A stretch of 64,000 nt of DNA from Burkholderiales bacterium (GCA_017307915.1 JAFKGG010000364.1:9980-73979), one strand, 5' to 3'. Counted from the stretch's first letter, positions 1-12,161 are shown. Made by a program: numbers and translations. The notes: generated from the letters alone by a model not told the origin.

Positions 1-1
1 C

Positions 2-295
2 GCGCTCGACGCGCTGACGCGCGACCAAATGAACGTCGAACTGCAGCGCATCTGGCTGGAAACGCGCAACACCGTCGTGTTCGTCACGCACGGCATCGCC
101 GAGGCGGTGTTCCTCGGCGACGTCGTGGTGGTGTTCTCGCCGCGCCCGGGCCGCATCGCCGCCACGCTGACGATCGACCTGCCGCGCCCGCGCCCGCTGG
201 CGGTGCGCGAATCCCCCGAGTTCGGCCACTACGTCGGCCAGATCCGCTCGCTGTTCGAGGAAATGGGCCTGATCGACGAACGGAGCCACGCATGA
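2..295 (+). CDS. NitT/TauT-family ABC transporter ATP-binding subunit, C-terminal part (5' end outside window)
   Basis: Frame open from base 2: ALDALTRDQMNVELQRIW...VVFVTHGIAEAVFLGDVVVVFSPRPGRI (D-loop tail and H-loop). Confidence 0.9.
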   Translation, partial: ALDALTRDQMNVELQRIWLETRNTVVFVTHGIAEAVFLGDVVVVFSPRPGRIAATLTIDLPRPRPLAVRESPEFGHYVGQIRSLFEEMGLIDERSHA

Positions 296-1059
296 GCACT
301 CGCCGTTCGCTGAACTCGGTGGCCGCCGGCACCATCTCGACCATCGTCTGCCTGCTGCTATGGGAAGGGCTGGGGCGCCTGACCGGCGTGCGGCCGATCA
401 TGCTGCCGCTGCCCACGCAAATCCTGCGCGAGCTGGTCACCGACTGGAACTGGTACATCGGGCATACGCTGTACACGCTGATGACCACGCTGCTTGGCTT
501 CGCGCTGTCGGTGGTCGGCGGCGTGCTGATCGGCGCGCTGGTGGTCGGCTCGCGGCTGGCCGAACGTTTCGTCTATCCGATGATCGTCGCCTTGAACAGC
601 GTGCCCAAGGTCGCCGTGGCGCCGCTGTTCGTCATCTGGCTGGGCACCGGGCCGGAACCGAAAGTGGCCATCGCGTTCCTGATCGCCGTGTTCGCGGTCA
701 TCGTCGATACGATCCACGGCCTGCGCTCGGTACCGCCCGACGTACTCGACCTGGGCCGCGTGCTGCGCGGCTCCTGGTATCACTTCTTCTTCAAGATCAA
801 GCTGCCCAGCGCGCTGTCGTCGATCGTCGCCGGCATGAAGGTGGCGATCGGCCTGGCGCTGGTCGGCGCCATCGTCGGCGAATTCGTGTCGGCGCAGCGC
901 GGACTGGGCTACGTGATCATGAGCGCGCAAGGTACTTTCGATACGCCACGCGTGTTCGCCGCCTTGTTCCTGCTGGCGCTAATGGGCATGGTGCTCTACG
1001 GCGCCCTGGTGTGGTTCGAGCGCAAGGCGATGCCCTGGCGCCCGGACACCGATCATTGA
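292..1059 (+). CDS. NitT/TauT-family ABC transporter permease
   Basis: About 6 hydrophobic segments, PKVAVAPLFVIWLG motif, EAA-loop region; 4-bp overlap with the ATPase. Confidence 0.92.
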   Translation: MSTRRSLNSVAAGTISTIVCLLLWEGLGRLTGVRPIMLPLPTQILRELVTDWNWYIGHTLYTLMTTLLGFALSVVGGVLIGALVVGSRLAERFVYPMIVALNSVPKVAVAPLFVIWLGTGPEPKVAIAFLIAVFAVIVDTIHGLRSVPPDVLDLGRVLRGSWYHFFFKIKLPSALSSIVAGMKVAIGLALVGAIVGEFVSAQRGLGYVIMSAQGTFDTPRVFAALFLLALMGMVLYGALVWFERKAMPWRPDTDH

Positions 1060-1076
1060 AAACGGAGAACCGACGC

Positions 1077-1691
1077 ATGCGCGCATTGCTGGCGCTGTCG
1101 CGGGCGATCGACGCCGTCAATACGGCGATCGGCCGCAGCGTGATCTGGATCACCCTGATCGTGGCGCTGATCAGCAGCGCCAACGCGATCAGCCGCAAGT
1201 TCCTGCACTCGAGTTCCAACGCCTGGCTCGAACTGCAGTGGTATCTGTTCGGTGCGCTGTTTCTGCTGGCCTCGGGATACACGCTGCTGAAGAACGGCCA
1301 CGTGCGCGTCGACATTCTGTCGCAGAAGCTGCCGCGACGCTGGCAGATCGCGATCGAGATCTTCGGCGTGCTGTTCTTCCTGATGCCGGCCTGCTGGCTG
1401 ATCATGTGGCTGGCCTGGCCGATGTTCTGGGAATCCTGGGTCAGCGGCGAAGTGTCGTCCAACTCCGGGGGTCTGATCCGCTGGCCGGTCAAGCTACTGA
1501 TCCCGATCGGCTTCGCGCTGCTGATCGCCGCCGGCATCTCGCACCTGATCAAGTGCATCGGTTTTCTCACCGGCCACTGCGCCGATCCGCTGCAGCCCGT
1601 ATCGACCAAGACCGATGAACAGAAACTCGCCGACGAACTGGCGCGGCGGCTGCAAGCCGAGCAAGCCGGCACCGGAGAGCCGCGCCGATGA
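1077..1691 (+). CDS. TRAP transporter small permease (DctQ-like)
   Basis: ATG at 1077 after GGAG; MRALLALSRAIDAVN..., ELQWYLF, HVRVDIL motifs; 4 TM segments. Confidence 0.9.
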   Translation: MRALLALSRAIDAVNTAIGRSVIWITLIVALISSANAISRKFLHSSSNAWLELQWYLFGALFLLASGYTLLKNGHVRVDILSQKLPRRWQIAIEIFGVLFFLMPACWLIMWLAWPMFWESWVSGEVSSNSGGLIRWPVKLLIPIGFALLIAAGISHLIKCIGFLTGHCADPLQPVSTKTDEQKLADELARRLQAEQAGTGEPRR

Positions 1692-3349
1692 CTGAATTCC
1701 TGATCGCCAACATGGCGCCGCTGATGTTCGCGACGCTGATCGTGTTCCTGCTGCTCGGTTTTCCGGTGGCATTCGCGCTGGCCGCCAACGGGATCGTGTT
1801 CGGGCTGCTCGGCATCGAACTGGGATTGCTCACGCCCGCGCTGTTCCAGGCACTGCCGCAGCGCGTGCTGGGCGTGGTGATGAACGATGCGCTGCTGGCG
1901 CTGCCGTTCTTCACGCTGATGGGCTTGATCCTGGAACGATCGGGCATGGCCGAAGACCTGCTCGAAACGATCGGCCAGTTGTTCGGCCCGATGCGCGGCG
2001 GGCTGGCGTTCGCGGTGGTCGCGGTCGGTGCCTTGCTGGCGGCCACCACCGGCGTGGTGTCGGCATCGGTGATCTCGATGGGGCTGATCTCTCTGCCGAT
2101 CATGCTGCGCTATGGCTACGATCGCCGCCTGGCCAGCGGCGTCATCGCCGCTTCGGGCACCTTGTCGCAGATCATCCCGCCGTCGCTGACGCTGATCATC
2201 CTGGCCGACCAGCTTGGCCGGTCGGTGGGCGACATGTATCTGGGCGCGATCCTGCCGGGCTTGATACTCACCGGCCTTTACATGCTCTACGTGGCGTTCC
2301 TGACGCTGACGCAGCCCAAGATGGTGCCGGCGCTGCCGGCCGAAGCACGCACCTTCGTCGAGCCCAATGGCGGCCACGGCGTGCCGTCGCTGGCCTTGAT
2401 GATGAGCATCGCCGCCGTCATCGCCATCGTGATCGACCGGCAGGTAGTGCCTGAAGGCACGTCGATCGACGCGCGTTGCGTCATCGGTATCCTGGTCTGG
2501 GGCGCGGCGGCATTCTGCATGGCCGTGGTGAACAAGCTGCTCGGCCTGGGTCTGCTGTCACGCATCAGCGAGCGCGTCACCTTCGTGATGATTCCGCCGC
2601 TGACACTGGTGTTTCTGGTGCTCGGCACGATCTTTCTCGGCGTGGCCACGCCGACCGAAGGCGGTGCGATGGGCGCGGTGGGCGCGCTGATCATGGCGCT
2701 GTCGCGCCAACGCTTGACGCTCCCCTTGCTGCGCCAGGCGATGGAGTCCACCACGCGCCTGACCTGCTTCGCCATCTTCATCCTGATCGGTTCGACGGTG
2801 TTCAGCCTGACCTTTCGCGCCGTCAACGGCGACCTGTGGGTCGAGCATCTGCTGGTCAGGCTGCCCGGCGGCGAAATGGGCTTCCTGATCTTCGTCAGCG
2901 TGTTCGTATTCGTGGCGGCGTTCTTTCTCGATTTCTTCGAGCTGGCGTTCATCATCGTGCCGCTGCTCGGGCCGATCGCCGACAAGATGGGCATCGACCT
3001 GATCTGGTTCGGCGTGCTGCTGGCGGTGAACATGCAGACTTCGTTCATGCACCCGCCGTTCGGCCTGGCGCTGTTCTACCTGCGCTCGGTAGCGCCCGAC
3101 CAGGACTACGACGATCGCGTCACCGGCCGGCGCATCGCGCGCATCACTACCGGGCAGATCTATCGCGGCTCGATTCCGTTCATCCTGATCCAGCTGGTGA
3201 TGATAGGCATCGTGATGGCCTTCCCCAACATGGTCACGCATTACAAAGACGACGCAGCCAAGGCCGGGCCTGGATCGATCAACCTGCAGATCGAAGGGGG
3301 CTACGGCAATAGCGGCTACGACGCGCAGGAGAATTCGCCGTTCAAGTGA
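1688..3349 (+). CDS. TRAP transporter large permease (DctM-like)
   Basis: LLALPFFTLMG, GTLSQIIPPS, TPTEGGAMG and QTSFMHPPFG motifs; overlaps dctQ stop. Confidence 0.93.
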   Translation: MTEFLIANMAPLMFATLIVFLLLGFPVAFALAANGIVFGLLGIELGLLTPALFQALPQRVLGVVMNDALLALPFFTLMGLILERSGMAEDLLETIGQLFGPMRGGLAFAVVAVGALLAATTGVVSASVISMGLISLPIMLRYGYDRRLASGVIAASGTLSQIIPPSLTLIILADQLGRSVGDMYLGAILPGLILTGLYMLYVAFLTLTQPKMVPALPAEARTFVEPNGGHGVPSLALMMSIAAVIAIVIDRQVVPEGTSIDARCVIGILVWGAAAFCMAVVNKLLGLGLLSRISERVTFVMIPPLTLVFLVLGTIFLGVATPTEGGAMGAVGALIMALSRQRLTLPLLRQAMESTTRLTCFAIFILIGSTVFSLTFRAVNGDLWVEHLLVRLPGGEMGFLIFVSVFVFVAAFFLDFFELAFIIVPLLGPIADKMGIDLIWFGVLLAVNMQTSFMHPPFGLALFYLRSVAPDQDYDDRVTGRRIARITTGQIYRGSIPFILIQLVMIGIVMAFPNMVTHYKDDAAKAGPGSINLQIEGGYGNSGYDAQENSPFK

Positions 3350-3416
3350 GACGGGCAGCGGGCTCGATCGCCCGCCGATAAAGCGTTAGGATTGCCGGTT
3401 CACACCGAGCACATCC

Positions 3417-4370
3417 ATGAAACGCATTGCCCTTCTCGATGATTACCAAGGCGTGGCGCTGGACGCCGCGCCGTGGCAGCGGCTGGCCGGCCGCGCCCAG
3501 GTCGATGCCATCCGCGAGCACATCGATGGCACGGCCGCATTGGCGGCGCGGCTGGCGCCCTACCACGTGCTGGTCGCCAACCGCGAGCGCACGCAGATCA
3601 GCGCCGAGCTGATCGCCGCGCTGCCCAATCTCGAACTGATCGTCACCTTCGGCAAGGCCAATACGTCGATCGACATAGCCGCCGCGGCCGCGCGCGGCAT
3701 CGTCGTCTGCGGCACCAGCGGCCTGGGCACCCCCACGACCGAACTCACCTGGGGGCTGATCCTGGCGCATGCACGCCATCTGCCGACCGAGATCAACGCC
3801 ATGCGCAGCGGCGGCTGGCAACGCACCGTGGGCACCGGTCTGGCCGACAAGACGCTGGGCGTGCTCGGTTTCGGGCGGCTGGGCTCGGCAGTGGCGCGCA
3901 TCGGCGTCGCCTTCGGCATGAAGGTGCTGGCCTGGTCGCGCAGCATGACCGACGAACGCGCCGCCGCCATCGGCGCGCAGGCCGCCACCAAGGACGACAT
4001 GCTCAGCCAGGCCGACGTCGTGTCGCTGCACCTGACGCTGAACGCCGGCACGCGCGGCCTGCTGGGCGCGCGCGAGCTGGGCCTGATGAAGCCGGGCGCG
4101 CTATTGGTGAACACCTCGCGCGGCCCGCTGGTCGATGAAGCCGCGCTGCTCGACGCGCTGCGGCAGCGGCGCATCTACGCCGCGCTCGACGTGTTCGACC
4201 GTGAGCCGCTACCCGACGATCATCCGCTGCGCACGCTCGACCATGCGCTGCTGACGCCGCACCTGGGCTACGTGATCGCCGAGAACTACCAGGTGATGTT
4301 TGGCGATGCGCTGGCCGACGTCGAGGCGTGGCTGGACGGCAAGCCGATCAGGGTGGTCAAGGCGCCCTGA
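3417..4370 (+). CDS. D-isomer-specific 2-hydroxyacid dehydrogenase family protein
   Basis: GVLGFGRLG Rossmann motif, NTSRG, ALDVF, LTPHLG. Confidence 0.92.
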   Translation: MKRIALLDDYQGVALDAAPWQRLAGRAQVDAIREHIDGTAALAARLAPYHVLVANRERTQISAELIAALPNLELIVTFGKANTSIDIAAAAARGIVVCGTSGLGTPTTELTWGLILAHARHLPTEINAMRSGGWQRTVGTGLADKTLGVLGFGRLGSAVARIGVAFGMKVLAWSRSMTDERAAAIGAQAATKDDMLSQADVVSLHLTLNAGTRGLLGARELGLMKPGALLVNTSRGPLVDEAALLDALRQRRIYAALDVFDREPLPDDHPLRTLDHALLTPHLGYVIAENYQVMFGDALADVEAWLDGKPIRVVKAP

Positions 4371-4389
4371 GCGGGGCTTCGGGGATCGA

Positions 4390-5142
4390 TCAGCTCCGAA
4401 GCTGCCGCTGCCGGTACGCCAGCACCCGCTCCTTGAGCCCCGGTCGCGCCGCCGAGCGCACCAGCGCGGCGAGATCGGCATCGGCCGCGCCATCATCGAG
4501 CGCGCCGCGCAGCAGGCGATAAGTGCTGCGATCGACGGCCAACACCGGCAGCACGCCCAAAGCGTCTTCCGATAGCGGGTCGATCACGTCGGGCAGCAGT
4601 TCGCCGGCCAGCCCCGACGAGATCGCCAGCGCCGCGTCGATCGTCGTGCCTTCGCTGACCCAGCGCAGCGCACGATCGGCGCCGACGCGCGCAGCAAGGC
4701 GGCGCGTGCCCAGCACCAGGCCGAAGCCGGCACCAGGAAAACGCAGGCTGGCCGCCGAGGCAAGCAAGCGATGATCGCAGGCGGCGAACACGTCGGCGCC
4801 GGCGCCCATGATGCGGCCGTGGCCGAGCGCAACCGTGCGCAGCGGCGCGCGCCAGAGGGCATCGAGCATCTGTTCGATGCGCACGACGCGCGCCAGCAGC
4901 GTCGCGTCGGTTTCATCGGCCAGCTCGCCCAGATCCAGGCCGGTGCAGAAATGCCGGCCGGCGCCGCGCAGCACCAGCGTATGCACCGCCGGGTCGGCCG
5001 CGGCGCATTCGATGGCAGCCAGCAGCGCTTCGACCAAAGCGGCCGACAAGGCATTGCCGCGCTCAGGGCGATCGAAGGTGAAAACAGCGCAACCGTCGCC
5101 GCGAACCTCGAGTTGCTGCGGCTTGCTGATCGTGGTCGTCAT
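4390..5142 (-). CDS. Enoyl-CoA hydratase/isomerase (crotonase) family protein with atypical catalytic residues
   Basis: DRPERGNAL, FCTGLDL oxyanion motif; GAGAD replaces GGGxE and FPGAGFG lacks the second Glu. Confidence 0.85.
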   Translation of the reverse strand: MTTTISKPQQLEVRGDGCAVFTFDRPERGNALSAALVEALLAAIECAAADPAVHTLVLRGAGRHFCTGLDLGELADETDATLLARVVRIEQMLDALWRAPLRTVALGHGRIMGAGADVFAACDHRLLASAASLRFPGAGFGLVLGTRRLAARVGADRALRWVSEGTTIDAALAISSGLAGELLPDVIDPLSEDALGVLPVLAVDRSTYRLLRGALDDGAADADLAALVRSAARPGLKERVLAYRQRQLRS

Positions 5143-5182
5143 CGTGAACTCCTCATCGTCGCCTTGGGCCGGCCTCGGTCAC

Positions 5183-5809
5183 TCAGTCAGCCACGGTGGC
5201 GCGCACCGCCGCCGAGCGATCCCACAAGTTGGGCACCACCGGCGACGAATAGCCGGACACGAACGGCTTGGCTTCGCCGCTGCGTTCATCGAACACGTGG
5301 CGCACTACGGCGCCGATGTTGGCGCCGTAGACATGAATGCTGATCGACGGCTGGTCTGCGATCGCGTTGGCCACCAGATGGATGTCGCCCACGGTGGGTG
5401 AGACCGCCTCGACGTCGCCCGGCTCCAGCAGTGCGCCCGCCTCGTCGAGCGGCAGCAGACGCCCGTCAGCCTCGCGCCGATAGCGGATGCCGCGTTCGGC
5501 CCCGCGCAGCATGCCGATCAAGCCCCACACCGTGTGGTCGTGGATCGGCGTGCGCTGGCCCGGCCCCCACACGAAGCTGACCACCGAGAAGCGCCCCAGC
5601 GGATCGGCATGCAGCAGATACTGCTGATAGAACTGCGGGTGCGGCTGCGCGAACGCCTCGGGCAGCCAGTCATCGCGCGCGATCAGCTGTGCCAGCAAAG
5701 TGCGGCCTTCGCGCAGCAAGGTGGCTTCTTCGCTGCTGCGGCCCACCAGTTGCGTCATCGCGACGATGAAATCGCGCAGCGGCGCGATGCGATCAGTGGC
5801 GGTATCCAT
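5183..5809 (-). CDS. Thiol dioxygenase (cysteine dioxygenase family), Gln-type, 3-mercaptopropionate dioxygenase-like
   Basis: YQQYLLHADP, TPIHDHTVWG, IHLVAN (3-His iron site) and SIHVYG motifs. Confidence 0.88.
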   Translation of the reverse strand: MDTATDRIAPLRDFIVAMTQLVGRSSEEATLLREGRTLLAQLIARDDWLPEAFAQPHPQFYQQYLLHADPLGRFSVVSFVWGPGQRTPIHDHTVWGLIGMLRGAERGIRYRREADGRLLPLDEAGALLEPGDVEAVSPTVGDIHLVANAIADQPSISIHVYGANIGAVVRHVFDERSGEAKPFVSGYSSPVVPNLWDRSAAVRATVAD

Positions 5810-5811
5810 GC

Positions 5812-7047
5812 TCAGACCTCCAGGCCGCGCGCGGCGGCGCGCGCGCGCAAGCTCGCGCCGTGTTCATCGAGCGCCGGCGCGCGCGTATCCACCGGCACCG
5901 GCGCGCCATCGATCCACACCGGGCACACCACGGTGCGCGTGTCGGTGCCGCCCGGCATCGTCATCGGCTGCACGAGCTGCAGATGCGCGGCCTGCGGATC
6001 GGCCAGCGCGCTGTCGAAATCGTTGATCGGGGCGCACGGCACGCCGGCCTCGGCAAAGCGCGCCAGCCACTCGGCGCTGTCGCGCTGCGCAAAGCGCGCC
6101 TCCAGCAGATCCTTCAACTCAGCCTGATGACGTGCGCGCAGCGTCGTGCTGGCAAAGCGCTCGTCGGCCGCCAGCTCGGGCGTGCCCACCACCTCGCACA
6201 CCGCGCGCCACAGCCGATCGTTGCCGGCGGCAATCGCGAACCAGCCATTACCCGAACGATACGCCTGATAGGGGGCGTTGCGCGGATGCGCCGAGCCCAG
6301 CTTGCGCGGATTGCGCCCGGTGCCGAAGTATTCGCTGGTCTGCAAGGCGCCGATCGCGATCGTGGTGGCGAACATGGGTATGTCCAGCCGGCCGCCGGGA
6401 CCGCCCGCCCTGACGCGTGCCAGCATCGCGGCCACCGAGAACGCGCCGTACAGCCCGGCGGTGAAATCCGACACCGGCACACCGCATTTGACCGGCGCGC
6501 CCTCGGGCTCGCCAGTTACGCTCATCACGCCGGCGGCCGCCTGAATCGTCAGGTCGAAGCCGCCTTCGCCGGCGCGCGGGCCGCTCTGCCCATACGCCGA
6601 GATCGAGCAATACACCAGCTGCGGTTTGCGTTCGGCGAACCATTCCCAACCCAAGCCCAGGCGCTGCATCACGCCGGGCCGGTTGTTCTCCACCAGCACG
6701 TCGGCATCGAGCACCAGCGCGCGCGCCACGTCGCGGTCGGCCGGGTTCTTCAAGTCCAGCGCGATCGAGCGCTTGCCGCGGTTGAGCGAAGCGAAGTTCT
6801 CGGAGAATCCGTTGTGGATCGGCGGCCATTGCCGCAGGCCATCGCCTTCGTGCGGCTCGATCTTGATCACCTGCGCGCCGAAGTCGGCCAGCAGCATGCC
6901 GCAGAACGGCCCGGCCGCCACCTGGCAGAACTCGACGACGCGAACGCCGTGCAGCGGGCCGATCGGCGCCGACGCGCCGCTGGAAGCCGCGCCCGTGGCA
7001 GCGTTATGGGCATCGGCGCCCGAACCGGCGCCTGCTGTGCTGTGCAT
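5812..7047 (-). CDS. Class III (CaiB/BaiF) CoA-transferase
   Basis: GPFCGMLLADFGAQVIKIE, NRGKRSIALDLK, ENNRPG, catalytic Asp in GVPVSD. Confidence 0.93.
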   Translation of the reverse strand: MHSTAGAGSGADAHNAATGAASSGASAPIGPLHGVRVVEFCQVAAGPFCGMLLADFGAQVIKIEPHEGDGLRQWPPIHNGFSENFASLNRGKRSIALDLKNPADRDVARALVLDADVLVENNRPGVMQRLGLGWEWFAERKPQLVYCSISAYGQSGPRAGEGGFDLTIQAAAGVMSVTGEPEGAPVKCGVPVSDFTAGLYGAFSVAAMLARVRAGGPGGRLDIPMFATTIAIGALQTSEYFGTGRNPRKLGSAHPRNAPYQAYRSGNGWFAIAAGNDRLWRAVCEVVGTPELAADERFASTTLRARHQAELKDLLEARFAQRDSAEWLARFAEAGVPCAPINDFDSALADPQAAHLQLVQPMTMPGGTDTRTVVCPVWIDGAPVPVDTRAPALDEHGASLRARAAARGLEV

Positions 7048-7061
7048 GGATCACACCTTGT

Positions 7062-7877
7062 TCATCGATGAAGTAGATTCGAACGCGGCGCAGCGCCGGC
7101 GGACACGCGCGCAGCGACGCCCATGCCGCTGTCGCTGCCGCCGCCATAGTCGTGTTCGACCGCCGCGGCCGCCGCGATCACGTCCTGCCCGAGCGCCTTG
7201 AACAGCGACGGCCGCAGCCGTTCCGCCGGCCCTGATACGCCGATCGCGGCCACCACCCTGCCGGCCGGATCGCGGATCGGCGCCGCCACGCCGCAGACGC
7301 TCTCGCGCCATTCGCCGCGGTTCACCGCATAGCCTTGCGTCCGCACGCGTTCCATCTCGCGCAGAAACTCGCCAGCATCGACGATGCTGCGCGGCGAATG
7401 ACGCACCAGCCGCCGCGACAGCGCCTGCTGCAAGTCAGCGCTTTCGAAGGCCAGCATCGCCTTGCCGGTGGCCACGCAGCAGGCTGGCGCACGGCCGCCG
7501 ATCTGGCTGTAGGCGCGCACCGGTTCGGGGCTATCGAGTTTGTGCAGATAGACCACTTCGTCTTGATCGAGCACCGACAGGTGCACGGTTTCGCGGCTGC
7601 GCTGCAGCAGCCCCTGCATCGCCGGCGCCGCCACCTGGCGCAGATCGAGCTGGCCCAGCATGGCCGCGCCCAGCTCCCACACGCGGATCGACGCCTGGTA
7701 GGTGCCGGCCGTTTCATCGCGCCGCACGTAGCGCAATTCGGTCAGCGCCTGCAGCAATCGATGCACGTTGCTCTTGCCGATCTCGAGCCGGCGCGCCAGC
7801 TCGGTGACGCCCAGCGGACGATCGCTGCGCGCCAGCACTTCGAGCAGGGCCAGGCCTTTGACGAGCGTGTTGTTCAA
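7062..7877 (-). CDS. IclR-family transcriptional regulator (probable TTG start at 7877)
   Basis: LNNTLVKGLALLEVL HTH, CVATGKAMLA, GVAAPI; GGAG lies just upstream of TTG 7877, and the ORF-track extension runs through the AT-rich promoter. Confidence 0.9.
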   Translation of the reverse strand: MNNTLVKGLALLEVLARSDRPLGVTELARRLEIGKSNVHRLLQALTELRYVRRDETAGTYQASIRVWELGAAMLGQLDLRQVAAPAMQGLLQRSRETVHLSVLDQDEVVYLHKLDSPEPVRAYSQIGGRAPACCVATGKAMLAFESADLQQALSRRLVRHSPRSIVDAGEFLREMERVRTQGYAVNRGEWRESVCGVAAPIRDPAGRVVAAIGVSGPAERLRPSLFKALGQDVIAAAAAVEHDYGGGSDSGMGVAARVSAGAAPRSNLLHR

Positions 7878-7921
7878 GCGCTTGCTCCGCAGCGGCCGCG
7901 CGGCCGGTATGTCGGTAGTCG

Positions 7922-7946
7922 TTCCATATTTTGGAATATTAATATT
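7922..7946. promoter_or_regulatory. Probable IclR operator in the AT-rich promoter of the iclR / CoA-transferase / thiol dioxygenase / crotonase operon
   Basis: TTCCA-TATTT-TGGAA inverted repeat (7922-7936) overlapping AATATTAATATT palindrome (7935-7946). Confidence 0.6.
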
Positions 7947-8090
7947 ATAAAACAGAACCACATCGGCCGACTATCGGATACCCGCCACGACGCGCAAACC
8001 TGCTCACACCCCCCCGTCTATTGAGGTGTTGTGCGATAACAAAAACCACCAACATCATCGTCAACAATCTCGATACATCAGGAGGGGGGA

Positions 8091-8762
8091 ATGAAAATCA
8101 GAACGGCCGCGGCATTGATGGTTTCCTTGGGCATGGCAAGCTCCGCGGTTGCAGCCTCCTTTTCGTATTCGGGCCCGCCGGTTCCGATTCCCGAAGCAGC
8201 CGATTTGAGCGGCGCCAATCCGGGGGCACAGGTCGGTGCGCCGATCACGGTCAGCGGGCTTACCCAGCCCGTCGGAAAGGTGGTGATCAGCATCGATGGC
8301 ACGGCCTGCACCGATGCGCCCGGAGCCACCACCGTCGGCATCGACCATACCTTCGTCAGCGATCTCGTCCTGACCCTGCGCGCCCCGGATGGAACGGAGG
8401 TCGTCATTGGCCAGTGGGCCGACGGCGGCGGCAACAATCTCTGCCAGGTGGTGTTCGACGACGCAGAGGCCGCGCAGCTACTGACCGTTCCGTCGGTCAA
8501 TGCGCCATTCACCGGCCGCTACCGGCCCTTTTCGCCTCTTTCCGCCTTTGCGGGAAGGCCGGCCAATGGGACATGGACCTTGCTGGCGCAAGACTTCTTC
8601 AGCGAAGACACGGGATCCATTCGCGCGTGGTCGATCGACATCACGTCAGCACAGGCTAGCGCGCCCACACCCGTTCCTACCCTTTCGGAATGGGCCTTGA
8701 TCGGCCTGTCTTCCCTCATGGCCGCCATCGCGGTCGCCAGGGTGCGGCGCCGCCAGCACTGA
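8091..8762 (+). CDS. Secreted proprotein-convertase P-domain protein with IPTL-CTERM sorting signal
   Basis: Signal peptide; HTFVSDLVLTLRAPDG...GTWTLLAQD...GSIRAWSIDI (P-domain-like); C-terminal VPTLSEWALIGL + TM + RRR. Confidence 0.82.
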   Translation: MKIRTAAALMVSLGMASSAVAASFSYSGPPVPIPEAADLSGANPGAQVGAPITVSGLTQPVGKVVISIDGTACTDAPGATTVGIDHTFVSDLVLTLRAPDGTEVVIGQWADGGGNNLCQVVFDDAEAAQLLTVPSVNAPFTGRYRPFSPLSAFAGRPANGTWTLLAQDFFSEDTGSIRAWSIDITSAQASAPTPVPTLSEWALIGLSSLMAAIAVARVRRRQH

Positions 8763-8778
8763 TTCAACGCGCGGTTCG

Positions 8779-8798
8779 AGGGGCCCTCGCGGGCCCCT
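8779..8798. terminator. Hairpin between convergent genes, likely terminator
   Basis: AGGGGCCC-TCGC-GGGCCCCT, 8-bp stem; no long U-tract. Confidence 0.55.
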
Positions 8799-8800
8799 TC

Positions 8801-10033
8801 CTATTTGGTCTGCGCCATCGTCGCCCGCAGATCCTGCCGCTCGAGCAGCCATGACACGGCCAGGCCGGCCAGCAGTCCCCAGAACGGCGCGCCGATGTCC
8901 AGGATCGTCTTGTCCGACACGGTCACCAGAAAGGTGATCAGCGCACCCAGCGTGAAGCGCCCGGCAAACGCCGTCACGAACGAAGTCTGCAGCACGCGCA
9001 GCATGGCCAGACCGGCCAGCGCCGCGATGAAGGCGGGCGGCGTGGCCAGCATCAGCCGCGTGAACAAGGGCGACAGCAGGCCGAAGGCCAGTGCCAGCAG
9101 CCCCACCACCAGGCCTCCGGTGTAATGCTGCTCGCGCGGCCCCGACGACGCCAGGATCGCGTTGGTCGGGCCGGTCAGGCAGGTCGACACGGTACCGACC
9201 ATCGCGGTCAGCATCGAGCCCAGGCCACAGGCGATGGTCACCGCGTTGACCGGCGCATCGTGACCAGCCGCCTTCAACACCGCCACCCCCTGACCGTTCT
9301 GCACCACCAGCACGGTGATCGCCAAGGGCACGACCAGCTCCAGCATCGCCGGCCACGACCACTGCGGCGATTGCAGCTCGGGCCGCGCCAGCACTGCGGT
9401 GGTCGCCATGTCGGGCGCGAAGCGCCCGACCAGCACGATCGCCAGAATCCCAACCAGCATGGCGCCGATCATCGGCGGCACGCGCCGCCCCAGACTCGGC
9501 AAGGCGCTGAGCACGATGAACACCAGCACCATCGGCACGGCGACGCCAGGGTCTTTATGCAGCGAATCGATCAGATCGGTGCCGAAGCGCAAAAAAACGC
9601 CGGCCACCATGCCCATCACGATCGGCATCGGCACCACCTGCATCGCGCGCCGCACCCATCCCGAGAAGCCCAGCAACAGCATCAACGCGCCGGTGGCAAT
9701 GAAAGCGCCGACCACTTCGCTGAACGACAGATGCCCCAGCGCCGGGCCGACCAGCACGGCGCCCGGAATCGTCCAGAAAAATGCCAGCGGCTGCCGGTAG
9801 CGCCAGCAGAACAGCAGCGTGATCAAGCCGTTCAGGAAGAACGAACCGAAGATCCACGATGCGAGCTGCGACTCCGACAACCCGCCCTGCGCACCCACCG
9901 ACAGGATCACTGCCACCGGCCCGGTGGCAGCGAAGACGAAGCCGATCAGGCCATTGACGGCGACGGTCGGGTTGAGGTCGGCGAACGCACCGGACAGCGT
10001 GGTAGGTGGGCGAGCGGCAGGTTCCAGGGGCAT
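8801..10033 (-). CDS. BenE-family benzoate/H+ symporter-like membrane protein
   Basis: AWTxPG-like FFWTIPGA, QNGQGVAVL, CLTGPTNAI and APFWGLLAG motifs; about 12 TM segments. Confidence 0.88.
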   Translation of the reverse strand: MPLEPAARPPTTLSGAFADLNPTVAVNGLIGFVFAATGPVAVILSVGAQGGLSESQLASWIFGSFFLNGLITLLFCWRYRQPLAFFWTIPGAVLVGPALGHLSFSEVVGAFIATGALMLLLGFSGWVRRAMQVVPMPIVMGMVAGVFLRFGTDLIDSLHKDPGVAVPMVLVFIVLSALPSLGRRVPPMIGAMLVGILAIVLVGRFAPDMATTAVLARPELQSPQWSWPAMLELVVPLAITVLVVQNGQGVAVLKAAGHDAPVNAVTIACGLGSMLTAMVGTVSTCLTGPTNAILASSGPREQHYTGGLVVGLLALAFGLLSPLFTRLMLATPPAFIAALAGLAMLRVLQTSFVTAFAGRFTLGALITFLVTVSDKTILDIGAPFWGLLAGLAVSWLLERQDLRATMAQTK

Positions 10034-10202: not shown

Positions 10203-11957
10203 TCAGCCCTGCGTGATGACGTTGACCAGCGCCTGGCGCCGTTCCCGCTGCACCACCTCGAGCGCGCGGCGCAGCGCCGGCAGCAACTGCGCGCGCTCGG
10301 TGACCCGCTCACCATGGCCGCCCGAGGCCTCGATGTAGCGCTCGAAATCGGGCATCGGTTCGAGCGACGACAGCGGCGAAGTGCCATGCGCCTTGGCATG
10401 CTGCGCCGCATGCTGGCCCGGATACATGCCCAGCGCCGCCTGCGACACCGCGCCCCAAGCCATGTTGTTGCACAGCACGGTCAGCACCGGCAGCTCGTGC
10501 ATCGCGGCGGCATGGTGGCATACGGCCGGATTGGCGAACAGATACGAGCCGTCGCCCAGCGCCGCGATGACCACGCGATCCGGTGCCGCCTGCTGCGCAC
10601 CCAGCGCCGCCGGCAATCCCCACCCCAGGCCTGCCGACGCCGACACGTAGAAATAGGTGCCGGGTTCGTCGAAGCACATCTGCTGCGGCGCCAGCGGGTA
10701 TTCGTTGACGACGATCGAATCGGCCGGCCGCACCGCCTGCAGACAGCGCGACAGAAAGGCCTTGGTAATCGCGCCGCCCGCCGCCTCGTCGCGCGCCACC
10801 GCCTGCTCGGTCTGCTGGCGCACCGCCCGGGCAGTGGCTTCGAGCCGCGCGCGGCGTTCGCCGGCGCGTGCCTGCGCGCCTCGCGCCTGCAATGCCCGCG
10901 CCAGCCGCTCGATCAGAGCGGCGGCGGTGGCGGTGATCGACAAATCGGATCGATGCGTACGCACCGGATAACGCGAAAACAAGGGATCGCTGCCGCCATG
11001 CGCCACGAACGCCTCGGGCGACGGCTCACTGCGCGACGGCACCCACGGCCCTTCGCATTCCAGGAACAGCAGCGCATCGGCCTGCGCGAACACCGCCTTG
11101 GTCTCATGCCCCAGGTGCAGCGGATGGCTGGCCGGAAAGTTGACGAAGCGCGCGCGCGTCTCGGCCACGCCGATGCCGAAGCGTTCAGCCAGATCGGCCA
11201 GCAGCGCCACCGTGGCCGGATCGGCACCGCTCGATTCGCAGACGATCACCGGATGACGCGCCTCGTCGAACACCTGCGCCAGCCGCGCCAGCGCCGCCTC
11301 GTCGGGCTGCGGCGCGGTCGGCACCGCCACCGGCCGGCCGGCCGCGGCGCCCGGCAGCGACTGCGCCAGCACTTCGCGCGGCAGGCTCAGATACACCGGC
11401 GCGCGTGGATGCGCCATCGCGATGCCGAACGCGCGATCGACGATCTCATCGACATTGGAACCATCGCGCAGCTCGTAGTCCCATTTGACCAGCTCGCGCA
11501 GCATCGCGCCCTGGTCGAACATCTCCTGGCCCCAATGGATCTCGCTGTTGCGCGCGCCGAGCCGGCCGTCTTCGAACAGCGGCGTGCGGCCCGCGGTGAG
11601 CAGCATCGGCACCTGGCCACGCGCCGCGTTCATCAGGCCGCAAACGGCATTGGCCGTGCCCACGCTCACGTGCAGTATCACCGCCTGCATGCGCCCCGAC
11701 ACCATGTAGTGGCCGTGCGCCATGCCGATCGCCAGGTTCTCATGCGTGGCGATCACCGGGTGCGGATACAACTGCGCCGCCGCCGCGCCCGCCTTGGCAT
11801 AGGCCTCGACGATCGGTGCCGTGTCGGTGCCCGAACCGACGTAGAAGCAATCGACGCCCTGTGCCTTCAAACGCCGCAGGAAGCGCTCGGCGGCCGAATG
11901 GCCGTCCGCTTCGCCGGCGACCGGTTGCGCCTGCATCGTCGTCATCTCGTTCTTCAT
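10203..11957 (-). CDS. Thiamine pyrophosphate-dependent enzyme (acetolactate synthase / decarboxylase superfamily)
   Basis: GSGTD, HENLAIGMAHG, TPP motif GDGSY...NN; GAGGAG SD before ATG 11957. Confidence 0.9.
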   Translation of the reverse strand: MKNEMTTMQAQPVAGEADGHSAAERFLRRLKAQGVDCFYVGSGTDTAPIVEAYAKAGAAAAQLYPHPVIATHENLAIGMAHGHYMVSGRMQAVILHVSVGTANAVCGLMNAARGQVPMLLTAGRTPLFEDGRLGARNSEIHWGQEMFDQGAMLRELVKWDYELRDGSNVDEIVDRAFGIAMAHPRAPVYLSLPREVLAQSLPGAAAGRPVAVPTAPQPDEAALARLAQVFDEARHPVIVCESSGADPATVALLADLAERFGIGVAETRARFVNFPASHPLHLGHETKAVFAQADALLFLECEGPWVPSRSEPSPEAFVAHGGSDPLFSRYPVRTHRSDLSITATAAALIERLARALQARGAQARAGERRARLEATARAVRQQTEQAVARDEAAGGAITKAFLSRCLQAVRPADSIVVNEYPLAPQQMCFDEPGTYFYVSASAGLGWGLPAALGAQQAAPDRVVIAALGDGSYLFANPAVCHHAAAMHELPVLTVLCNNMAWGAVSQAALGMYPGQHAAQHAKAHGTSPLSSLEPMPDFERYIEASGGHGERVTERAQLLPALRRALEVVQRERRQALVNVITQG

Positions 11958-12161
11958 GGGCTTGCTCCTCGTTTCGGTCCCGTTTGCGCCGGACCTGTCT
12001 CTTGTCATTGGCCACTGCTTGTCGATCAGCACGAATGATAGGCCGACTTCGGCGCACGATCATGCCGACGCGGCAAGATTGACGCGCAAATAGTTCAGAA
12101 CCTGCGGCTGGAGGGCAAAGTTCGCCACGCGGCGGCGAGCCCGCCGCTCAGGCGATCAGGC

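Follow-up and report, generated by a model that had tools for sequence, protein, structure and literature searches.

3-Mercaptopropionate is a common natural thiol that arises from dimethylsulfoniopropionate (DMSP) and from the breakdown of methionine and homocysteine. In the known pathway it is converted to 3-sulfinopropionate, activated to the coenzyme A (CoA) ester and split into propionyl-CoA and sulfite. Two versions have been described, Mdo-Act-AcdA in Variovorax paradoxus TBEA6 and Mdo-SucCD-Acd in Advenella mimigardefordensis DPN7, and in the literature that we found the sole described catabolic route for 3-mercaptopropionate ends with the desulfinase Acd, an enzyme of the acyl-CoA dehydrogenase (ACAD) fold. 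The compound is a building block of bacterial polythioesters as well (PMC6370202). Here we describe an operon in a 64,000-nucleotide stretch of DNA from a Burkholderiales bacterium (GCA_017307915.1, JAFKGG010000364.1:9980-73979), referred to below as the window, which is C70:9980-73979 of genome G000 (6.1 Mb in 521 contigs, 94.4% complete). Like Mdo-Act-AcdA, the operon combines a Gln-type thiol dioxygenase with a class III CoA-transferase, but a crotonase-fold protein occupies the place in the gene order where the described routes would lead one to look for the ACAD-fold desulfinase. Unlike in TBEA6, where mdo is distant from act and acdA by locus tags (PMC6370202), the three genes of the window form a compact unit under the predicted control of an IclR-family regulator. 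The locus appears to encode a widespread variant of the known 3-mercaptopropionate pathway.

Three further systems bear on how such a crotonase could work. CaiB and CaiD of Escherichia coli carnitine metabolism are likewise a class III CoA-transferase and a crotonase encoded side by side; the transferase supplies the crotonase with its CoA ester and the ester that the crotonase forms returns as donor, which provides a model for the pair in the window and for the fused forms described below. The substrate there is a quaternary amine rather than a sulfur acid, and CaiD is a hydratase/dehydratase, whereas the window crotonase has Asp and Gly at the Glu positions and scores far below every NCBIfam equivalog cut-off. 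Frc and Oxc of Oxalobacter couple a class III transferase to the removal of an anionic group (CO2 there, a sulfur oxyanion as proposed for the window) with regeneration of the donor CoA ester; Oxc differs in being a thiamine enzyme, and CoA recycling in the window would follow by analogy. DmdD, the methylthioacryloyl-CoA hydratase of DMSP demethylation (4izb, 4izc and 4izd, deposited as an enoyl-CoA hydratase/isomerase family protein), has the crotonase fold and frees a sulfur compound from the CoA ester of a C3 acid, but it is distant from the window crotonase (53 bits). DmdD keeps both catalytic Glu residues, requires a prior ACAD step and frees methanethiol by hydration.

The four genes of the window lie head to tail on the minus strand (Table 1). 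The iclR stop is separated from the transferase start by 14 nt, the transferase stop from the dioxygenase start by 2 nt, and the dioxygenase stop from the crotonase start by 40 nt. They form a genuine four-gene operon, which is predicted to be regulated by IclR. The same four genes, behind a TTCCA-N5-TGGAA palindrome, had been named in an earlier reading of this DNA (the original prediction below), and all of these elements were found where it had placed them. Contigs from RNA libraries (metatranscriptomes of two studies) span parts of the four genes, and each of the three gene junctions is bridged by single contigs, although such libraries may contain DNA and the contigs do not prove transcription or a single transcript.

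We put the probability at about 50% that the crotonase cleaves the C-S bond of 3-sulfinopropionyl-CoA and would thus be a non-orthologous replacement of the ACAD-fold Acd. The reasoning is that an orthologue of the transferase partners Acd in another genome and would make 3-sulfinopropionyl-CoA, that the crotonase is the neighbour or fusion partner of this transferase, and that Acd itself is missing.

By its sequence the crotonase is not a canonical enoyl-CoA hydratase (EC 4.2.1.17), as the Glu pair is not present. In an alignment with 3-hydroxypropionyl-CoA dehydratase (5zai), Asp117 (in GAGADVF) falls at the first catalytic Glu and Gly137 (in RFPGAGFG) at the second, the positions of the catalytic pair Glu144 and Glu164 of the rat hydratase. 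Asp117 is located five residues before the Cys of a conserved CD motif, which is the canonical position of the first Glu. The presence of Asp at the first position and the lack of the second Glu had been pointed out before; both Asp117 and Gly137 prove to be invariant across 26 diverse family members. GAGAD and FPGA.FG..LG are invariant or nearly so in these homologues, the C-terminal DLAALVRSAARPGLK helix is strongly conserved, and the oxyanion-hole loops FCTG (65-68) and GAG (113-115) align with those of solved crotonases. All scores against the NCBIfam hydratase equivalogs are far under the cut-offs. The best solved relative, 3isa from Bordetella parapertussis (150.8 bits, E 4e-43), shares GAGxD, FPGxxFG and a C-terminal DLAALxRSAAxPG helix with the window protein; as a structural genomics entry (putative enoyl-CoA hydratase/isomerase) it gives the fold and no assigned function. 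The nearest characterised solved relative is 5zai, and mycobacterial EchA6, a non-catalytic protein, also ranks high. The window family looks catalytic, with an active site of its own rather than that of a decayed hydratase, because the oxyanion-hole framework is intact and many polar residues are invariant. A protein search with the crotonase returned 1913 proteins at E <= 1e-20, not all of them necessarily in the subfamily, and no publication on this crotonase was found in the literature searched, which omits most subscription journals.

Judged by similarity to solved enzymes, the dioxygenase is an ordinary member of the Gln-type 3-mercaptopropionate dioxygenase group. It matches the Ralstonia eutropha homologue 4qma with 267.7 bits (E 6e-79), the Azotobacter 3-mercaptopropionate dioxygenase 6xb9 with 251.5 bits (E 5e-74) and the Pseudomonas enzyme 4tlf with 238.1 bits (E 7e-70), compared to 40.1 bits for mercaptosuccinate dioxygenase 8vni and about 30 bits for Arg-type cysteine dioxygenases (CDO), including the mammalian enzyme; its Pfam CDO_I score is barely above the cut-off. 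The three-His site is kept, with H90 and H92 (HDH, 90-92) and H144 (GDIHLV, 141-146) aligned with the metal histidines of 4tlf, 6xb9 and 4qma, and the segments YQQYLL (61-66) and SISIHVYG (155-162) are identical or conservatively replaced in 4tlf and 6xb9. From established structure knowledge, the Gln replaces the Arg that binds the substrate carboxylate in eukaryotic CDO, and the Ser, His and Tyr of the second segment form the Ser-His-Tyr motif.

The CoA-transferase covers positions 1-365 of the 366 in the PF02515 profile. Its closest solved relative is 4ed9 (E 2e-82), with whose active-site Asp D194 of the window protein (in VSDFTAG, 192-198) is aligned. In class III transferases the active-site Asp forms an anhydride intermediate, as established for Frc. 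The window transferase is 67% identical to the transferase that adjoins a genuine Acd in genome G191 and just 34% identical to the one adjoining Acd in genome G023.

Acd was defined by the NCBIfam equivalog NF042439 (3-sulfinopropanoyl-CoA desulfinase, ACAD fold) with its cut-off of 600 bits. In agreement with the original prediction, which had noted the lack of an Acd gene, no acyl-CoA dehydrogenase gene is present among the window open reading frames (ORFs) scanned with Pfam, up to 41 kb, and none of the 71 ACAD matches in the genome falls on contig C70. No Acd that could be co-regulated with the operon was found elsewhere in the 94%-complete assembly: the best of 74 ACAD matches reaches 311 bits against NF042439, though at this completeness absence is not proven. 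When a genuine Acd was used as the query, the best match was 144 bits in 84 crotonase loci and 243 bits in the G000 genome, whereas scores of 461-898 bits are reached by the five ORFs above the NF042439 cut-off; no Acd-type desulfinase is thus present in the crotonase loci. Two G000 ACADs that have neither catalytic base (C119:38740-40071 and C211:2910-4283) were considered as a hidden Acd and rejected: they score 267 and 202 bits against NF042439 and match ordinary ACADs better, with the solved Acd 5af7 ranking about 40th for each. In the 311-bit match (C113:1320-2438), a Glu is retained at the alternative catalytic position, and the next gene encodes a TctC binding protein.

The distribution of the two candidate desulfinases was surveyed in 301 genomes of the same order, evenly drawn, with only 6-8 first-look candidates scored per genome. 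The dioxygenase was found in 49 genomes, the crotonase in 35 and Acd above the cut-off in 5, which makes Acd seven times rarer than the crotonase. The dioxygenase is present in 30 of the 35 crotonase genomes compared with 19 of the 266 genomes without crotonase. Among the 49 dioxygenase genomes, 29 have the crotonase only, 3 have Acd only, one has both and 16 have neither, so that the distribution of Acd and crotonase is largely complementary. The alternation extends to single genera. In genus g51, G048 contains the transferase-dioxygenase-crotonase trio and G191 an Acd (658 bits), after which comes a transferase 67% identical to that of G048, the same value as for the window; in genus g72, Acd occurs in G257 and the trio in G129; and in genus g26, Acd occurs in G023 and G296, paired with the different, 34% identical transferase, and the crotonase in G215. 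The complementary distribution, together with the shared transferase orthologue, supports a substitution of the crotonase for the desulfinase.

The association of the three genes is conserved well beyond the window. A scan of one genome per species yielded 80 crotonase-family loci, all from species other than that of the window; the set of 84 used above adds four loci fetched earlier, one of them a duplicate record. Counting domain matches in stop-to-stop ORFs, 44 of the 80 loci contain the transferase, the dioxygenase and the crotonase (43 in the same order and on one strand). A further 14 have the dioxygenase and crotonase with no transferase of this type within 4 kb, some on contigs that end early and possibly hide one. 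The transferase and crotonase occur without a dioxygenase in 7 loci and as a fusion in a single ORF in 5, and the remaining 10 crotonases have neither neighbour. In total, the crotonase adjoins the dioxygenase in 58 loci and adjoins, or is fused to, the transferase in 56. When longer proteins were searched for, transferase-crotonase fusions came up in 16 clusters (649-695 aa), with no other type of fusion. In Xanthobacter the trio and iclR are in the same order as in the window, the symbiosis plasmids of Bradyrhizobium carry the trio behind a split thiamine diphosphate (TPP) decarboxylase, an ABC transporter and a PrpD-like gene, Cupriavidus campinensis has it on a 2.8 Mb replicon filed as a plasmid, and a Rhodococcus plasmid has the transferase-crotonase pair.

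Other genes recur near the module. TctC binding proteins are found near the crotonase in 35 of the 80 loci, and a putative sulfate exporter, YeiH, stands beside the dioxygenase-crotonase genes in a genome of the same genus and at a number of further loci, in keeping with the proposed sulfur removal. A BisC-family molybdenum S/N-oxide reductase accompanies the module in 18 loci, mostly divergent from iclR (e.g. L021:10724-13288, which scores 926 bits against TIGR00509, slightly below the cut-off), and hints that sulfoxides may feed the pathway. In 23 loci the atypical crotonase is followed by a second one (L027:2286-3023, L016:12847-13680, L157:6485-7225) that shows the complementary pattern, with Val or Ala at the first Glu position and the second Glu retained in YPEAKLG. 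Among the NCBIfam models it is matched best by PRK08252 and CaiD-like entries, in each case under cut-off. It is CaiD-like rather than a standard hydratase; the idea that it is a canonical acryloyl-CoA hydratase was rejected since the first Glu is absent, and it is not by itself evidence for formation of acryloyl-CoA. Half of the 10 loci with neither neighbour have a LysE exporter beside the crotonase. Four of these five genomes encode the dioxygenase elsewhere, two in a string of PrdB-like, transferase and dioxygenase genes and two as the dioxygenase alone. Around the fused forms we found genes for IclR, TctC, the second crotonase, a class III aminotransferase, a deacetylase-family protein, the BisC-type S-oxide reductase and sulfatases.

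These results lead us to propose the following scheme, in which the operon as a whole would be an IclR-controlled, autoregulated and self-contained unit for sulfur removal from 3-mercaptopropionate. The Gln-type dioxygenase would convert the thiol to 3-sulfinopropionate, a step well supported by homology, and the class III CoA-transferase would make 3-sulfinopropionyl-CoA, as suggested by its orthology to the transferase that partners a genuine desulfinase. The thioester would then be held in the oxyanion hole of the crotonase, where Asp117, as the single acid/base, would take the alpha proton and the C-S bond would break. The most plausible chemistry would be a beta-elimination of the E1cB type that gives acryloyl-CoA and a sulfur oxyanion, finally sulfite; an Acd-like route to propionyl-CoA and sulfite may be the alternative. 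A leaving group at the sulfoxylate level would become sulfite in air but would be chemically unusual. As is the case for CaiB/CaiD and Frc/Oxc, the CoA ester that the crotonase produces may act as the donor for the next round, and such recycling would explain the tight linkage of transferase and crotonase, their fusions and the self-sufficiency of the three-gene unit. It is possible, although we regard it as doubtful, that the Asp/Gly crotonases constitute a new C-S lyase class, namely beta-lyases of 3-sulfinopropionyl-CoA (perhaps 3-sulfopropionyl-CoA) that work by enolate chemistry, leave acryloyl-CoA and recycle CoA together with the transferase.

Several points weigh against a crotonase desulfinase. 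Crotonases stabilise an alpha-carbanion but the sulfinate sits on the beta carbon, the thioester gives no help to a direct loss of SO2, and an elimination would expel sulfoxylate, for which, as far as general chemical knowledge goes, we know of no biological precedent as a leaving group. The suggestion in the original prediction that the crotonase is an alternative sulfite-releasing lyase therefore stands in part: genomics supports a substitution for Acd, while crotonase chemistry does not obviously yield the products of Acd. The dioxygenase is not adjacent in 22 of the 80 crotonase loci and is lacking altogether in 5 of the 35 crotonase genomes, and the fused forms are accompanied by the aminotransferase, reductase and sulfatase genes instead of a dioxygenase. 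One genome (G289) carries both Acd and the crotonase, 16 of the dioxygenase genomes have neither enzyme, and the counts come from related genomes that are not independent and from the few candidates scored in each. The fused forms without dioxygenase suggest that the substrate class of the crotonase may be wider and include, for example, 3-sulfopropionyl-CoA. Elimination of sulfite from this sulfonate analogue would be chemically easy, and 3-sulfopropionyl-CoA may therefore be an additional or even the main substrate of the family.

In a different assignment the crotonase would be a thioether-CoA beta-lyase that acts before the dioxygenase: the transferase would activate a 3-(alkylthio)propionate (3,3'-thiodipropionate, for example), the crotonase would free 3-mercaptopropionate with acryloyl-CoA remaining, and the dioxygenase would dispose of the thiol. 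A single general base is enough for such a retro-Michael loss of a thiolate, which suits Asp117 without a second Glu, and the frequent presence of TctC and of the BisC-type S-oxide reductase in the loci is in line with a thioether substrate. The mdo/act/acdA cluster of V. paradoxus TBEA6 includes two enoyl-CoA hydratases that are required for growth on thiodipropionate and not on 3-sulfinopropionate, and one of them is stabilised by thiodipropionyl-CoA (PMC6370202); TctC proteins of this strain have been studied as candidate thiodipropionate transporters (PMC8102459). We nevertheless consider this assignment unlikely. Of the 30 genomes in which crotonase and dioxygenase occur together, 29 would be left with no desulfinase for 3-sulfinopropionate; an orthologue of the transferase also partners a genuine Acd, whose substrate is 3-sulfinopropionyl-CoA; and the alternation of Acd and crotonase within genera would go unexplained.

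Two other explanations move the crotonase away from the C-S bond of 3-sulfinopropionyl-CoA. The crotonase could handle the carbon skeleton after the sulfur is lost, by isomerising, hydrating or hydrolysing an acryloyl-, 3-hydroxypropionyl- or propionyl-type CoA ester, or it could be a CoA-ester hydrolase or carrier, with desulfination spontaneous or due to an unrecognised enzyme. The relationship to 5zai and the high rank of EchA6 fit this notion, and the second crotonase in 23 loci indicates that further CoA-ester steps exist. However, no spontaneous desulfination of 3-sulfinopropionyl-CoA is known, and a dedicated enzyme, Acd, exists for that reaction (PMC5373536, PMC6370202). As nothing else in the minimal operon of the window is a candidate for the reaction, the hydratase Glu pair is missing from the family, and the fusions argue that the crotonase receives the direct product of the transferase, we hold a role after desulfination to be quite improbable. 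Lower still is the likelihood that the operon serves another thiol or sulfur acid (cysteine, mercaptosuccinate or 3-sulfopropionate derived from homotaurine) and that the likeness to the 3-mercaptopropionate pathway is merely generic. We know of only a few bacterial Gln-type dioxygenases for which the substrate is established, some related loci contain a class III aminotransferase with an aldehyde dehydrogenase, or the split TPP decarboxylase with a TauABC-like transporter, which would fit amino-sulfonate or sulfinate inputs, and the ease of beta-elimination of sulfite from a 3-sulfonate CoA ester agrees with this option too. The aminotransferase and aldehyde dehydrogenase are not part of the operon in the window, however, and the dioxygenase scores 238-252 bits against two assayed 3-mercaptopropionate dioxygenases, far above the values for 8vni and the Arg-type enzymes. 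The original prediction had left room for a different thiol acid; this option is disfavoured because the solved Gln-type enzymes that the dioxygenase closely resembles (238-268 bits) include two deposited as 3-mercaptopropionate dioxygenases. Given that about a quarter of the crotonase loci have no dioxygenase, the substrate range of the crotonase may be broader than 3-sulfinopropionyl-CoA.

The regulatory part of the proposal is autoregulation of the operon by its IclR protein, which shares the roughly even odds of the scheme as a whole. The iclR frame is open over 7062-7961, and its start is probably the TTG at 7877, preceded by GGAG at 7885-7888, rather than the GTG at 7961. The product scores below cut-off against the NCBIfam models for BhcR, KdgR and PcaR. 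In about 26 of the 84 loci, a homologue of this IclR (200-470 bits) is encoded no more than 8 kb from the crotonase. The palindrome TTCCATATTTTGGAA follows a TATAAT hexamer at a distance of 7 nt and precedes the probable iclR start by about 45 nt; four matches with one mismatch elsewhere in the window, all inside long ORFs, were taken as chance occurrences. Near-identical boxes, often with the AT-rich centre (..TCCATATTTTGGAA..) kept, are found in intergenic DNA beside the module or beside homologous iclR genes in other genera, including Ramlibacter (L009), Xanthobacter (L008), Pigmentiphaga (L010) and Ottowia (L055 and L057), and in L050, L052, L056, L064, L071 and L080; several metagenome-assembled genomes are among the sources. 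The palindrome, proposed earlier as the operator, is thus a predicted IclR operator with good comparative support from other genera. There is no good -35 box near the TATAAT hexamer, a consensus scan of the sequence called no promoter there, and promoter and terminator scans of the window gave nothing useful.

If the crotonase is indeed a desulfinase, it would represent a previously unknown type of reaction for the heavily studied crotonase superfamily and, in Burkholderiales, the more common way to desulfinate (35 versus 5 of the 301 sampled genomes). Many genes annotated as enoyl-CoA hydratase/isomerase family protein would gain a function, and the many genomes that have the dioxygenase and no Acd would be explained. 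The compact three-gene cassette, with its regulator and operator, could then be used in engineering of sulfur removal, or be a target for blocking such removal in polythioester production. The operon is a well-defined target for enzyme discovery.

Table 1. Operon genes and candidate control sites in the window (positions counted from its first nucleotide)
Feature	Position	Strand	Remarks
iclR-family regulator, first gene of the operon	7062..7877	-	Pfam HTH_IclR 64.6 bits, IclR_C 148.8 bits
Class III (CaiB/BaiF) CoA-transferase, second gene	5812..7047	-	Pfam CoA_transf_3 (PF02515) 419.7 bits
Gln-type thiol dioxygenase (3-mercaptopropionate dioxygenase type), third gene	5183..5809	-	Pfam CDO_I 23.7 bits
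Atypical crotonase-fold enzyme, last gene of the operon	4390..5142	-	Pfam ECH_1 86.4 bits, ECH_2 64.3 bits
Candidate palindromic operator TTCCATATTTTGGAA (TTCCA-N5-TGGAA)	7922..7936		sole exact match in 64 kb
TATAAT hexamer, possible -10 box	7944..7949	-	read off the sequence; a lead only

The convergent downstream neighbour of the operon is a 2-hydroxyacid dehydrogenase gene (3417-4370). It was considered as a member of the module and rejected, as it occurs with the crotonase in just 2 of the 80 loci and belongs to a TRAP-transporter operon. It is the last gene of a plus-strand run in positions 1-4370 of the window and in C70:1-12000 (L126), with genes for DctP, a three-subunit molybdenum enzyme of the xanthine dehydrogenase/CoxLMS type, an NMT1-type ABC binding protein and permease, DctQ, DctM and, at the end, the D-2-hydroxyacid dehydrogenase. 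In the closest relative locus (L011), the dehydrogenase and DctM genes are likewise convergent on the module. At a distance of 2 kb from the operon, the minus strand encodes a TPP enzyme (10203-12032) that scores 610 bits against NCBIfam PRK08327, above the cut-off. Hydrogenophaga (L026), Pigmentiphaga (L010) and Bradyrhizobium (L122) also encode TPP enzymes close to the module, and the TBEA6 cluster includes an ilvX-like gene (PMC6370202).

Some related loci have unusual neighbours. On the metagenome contigs L164 and L165, which carry the fusion and no dioxygenase, a fixed string of genes for a sulfatase (L165 only), the sulfatase maturation enzyme, a BisC-like reductase, IclR and TctC leads to the fusion, which is followed by a second crotonase (L164), TctC, a class III aminotransferase and a histone-deacetylase-family protein. 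A PrdB/GrdB-like protein (98 bits against TIGR04483, far below the cut-off) is encoded beside the module in several genera (L009:9304-10320, L008:4188-5141 and L007:4219-5124); G000 has a 46% identical homologue at L127:2041-2805 (contig C114), beside a different class III CoA-transferase. Plasmid pPHS1_P of Paraburkholderia graminis (L171) contains a distant transferase-crotonase pair (43% identity) in the company of a Rieske oxygenase and its reductase, a TIGR00366 family protein and a class III alcohol dehydrogenase. The C-S lyase PatB is encoded close by, so that the pair occurs there in another setting.

The G000 genome contains a second possible organosulfur cluster with a LysR regulator (L125, C278:8000-19000, approximately 2585-9592). 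It encodes a 515 aa protein with a C-terminal alpha/beta-hydrolase domain, the earlier part of which is weakly similar to the window dioxygenase (32% identity, E 6e-13), as well as TctC proteins, a class III CoA-transferase and an ACAD in which IAPVSQ replaces the catalytic YEG motif. In the window, divergent from iclR, the plus strand at 8091-8762 encodes a small secreted protein, which has a proprotein-convertase P-domain and carries an IPTL-CTERM sorting signal. In ten studies, two of which may have yielded the present DNA, nearly identical DNA (more than half of the sampled 31-letter words) is present in runs labelled as aquatic, soil, bioreactor, sludge and activated-sludge metagenomes.

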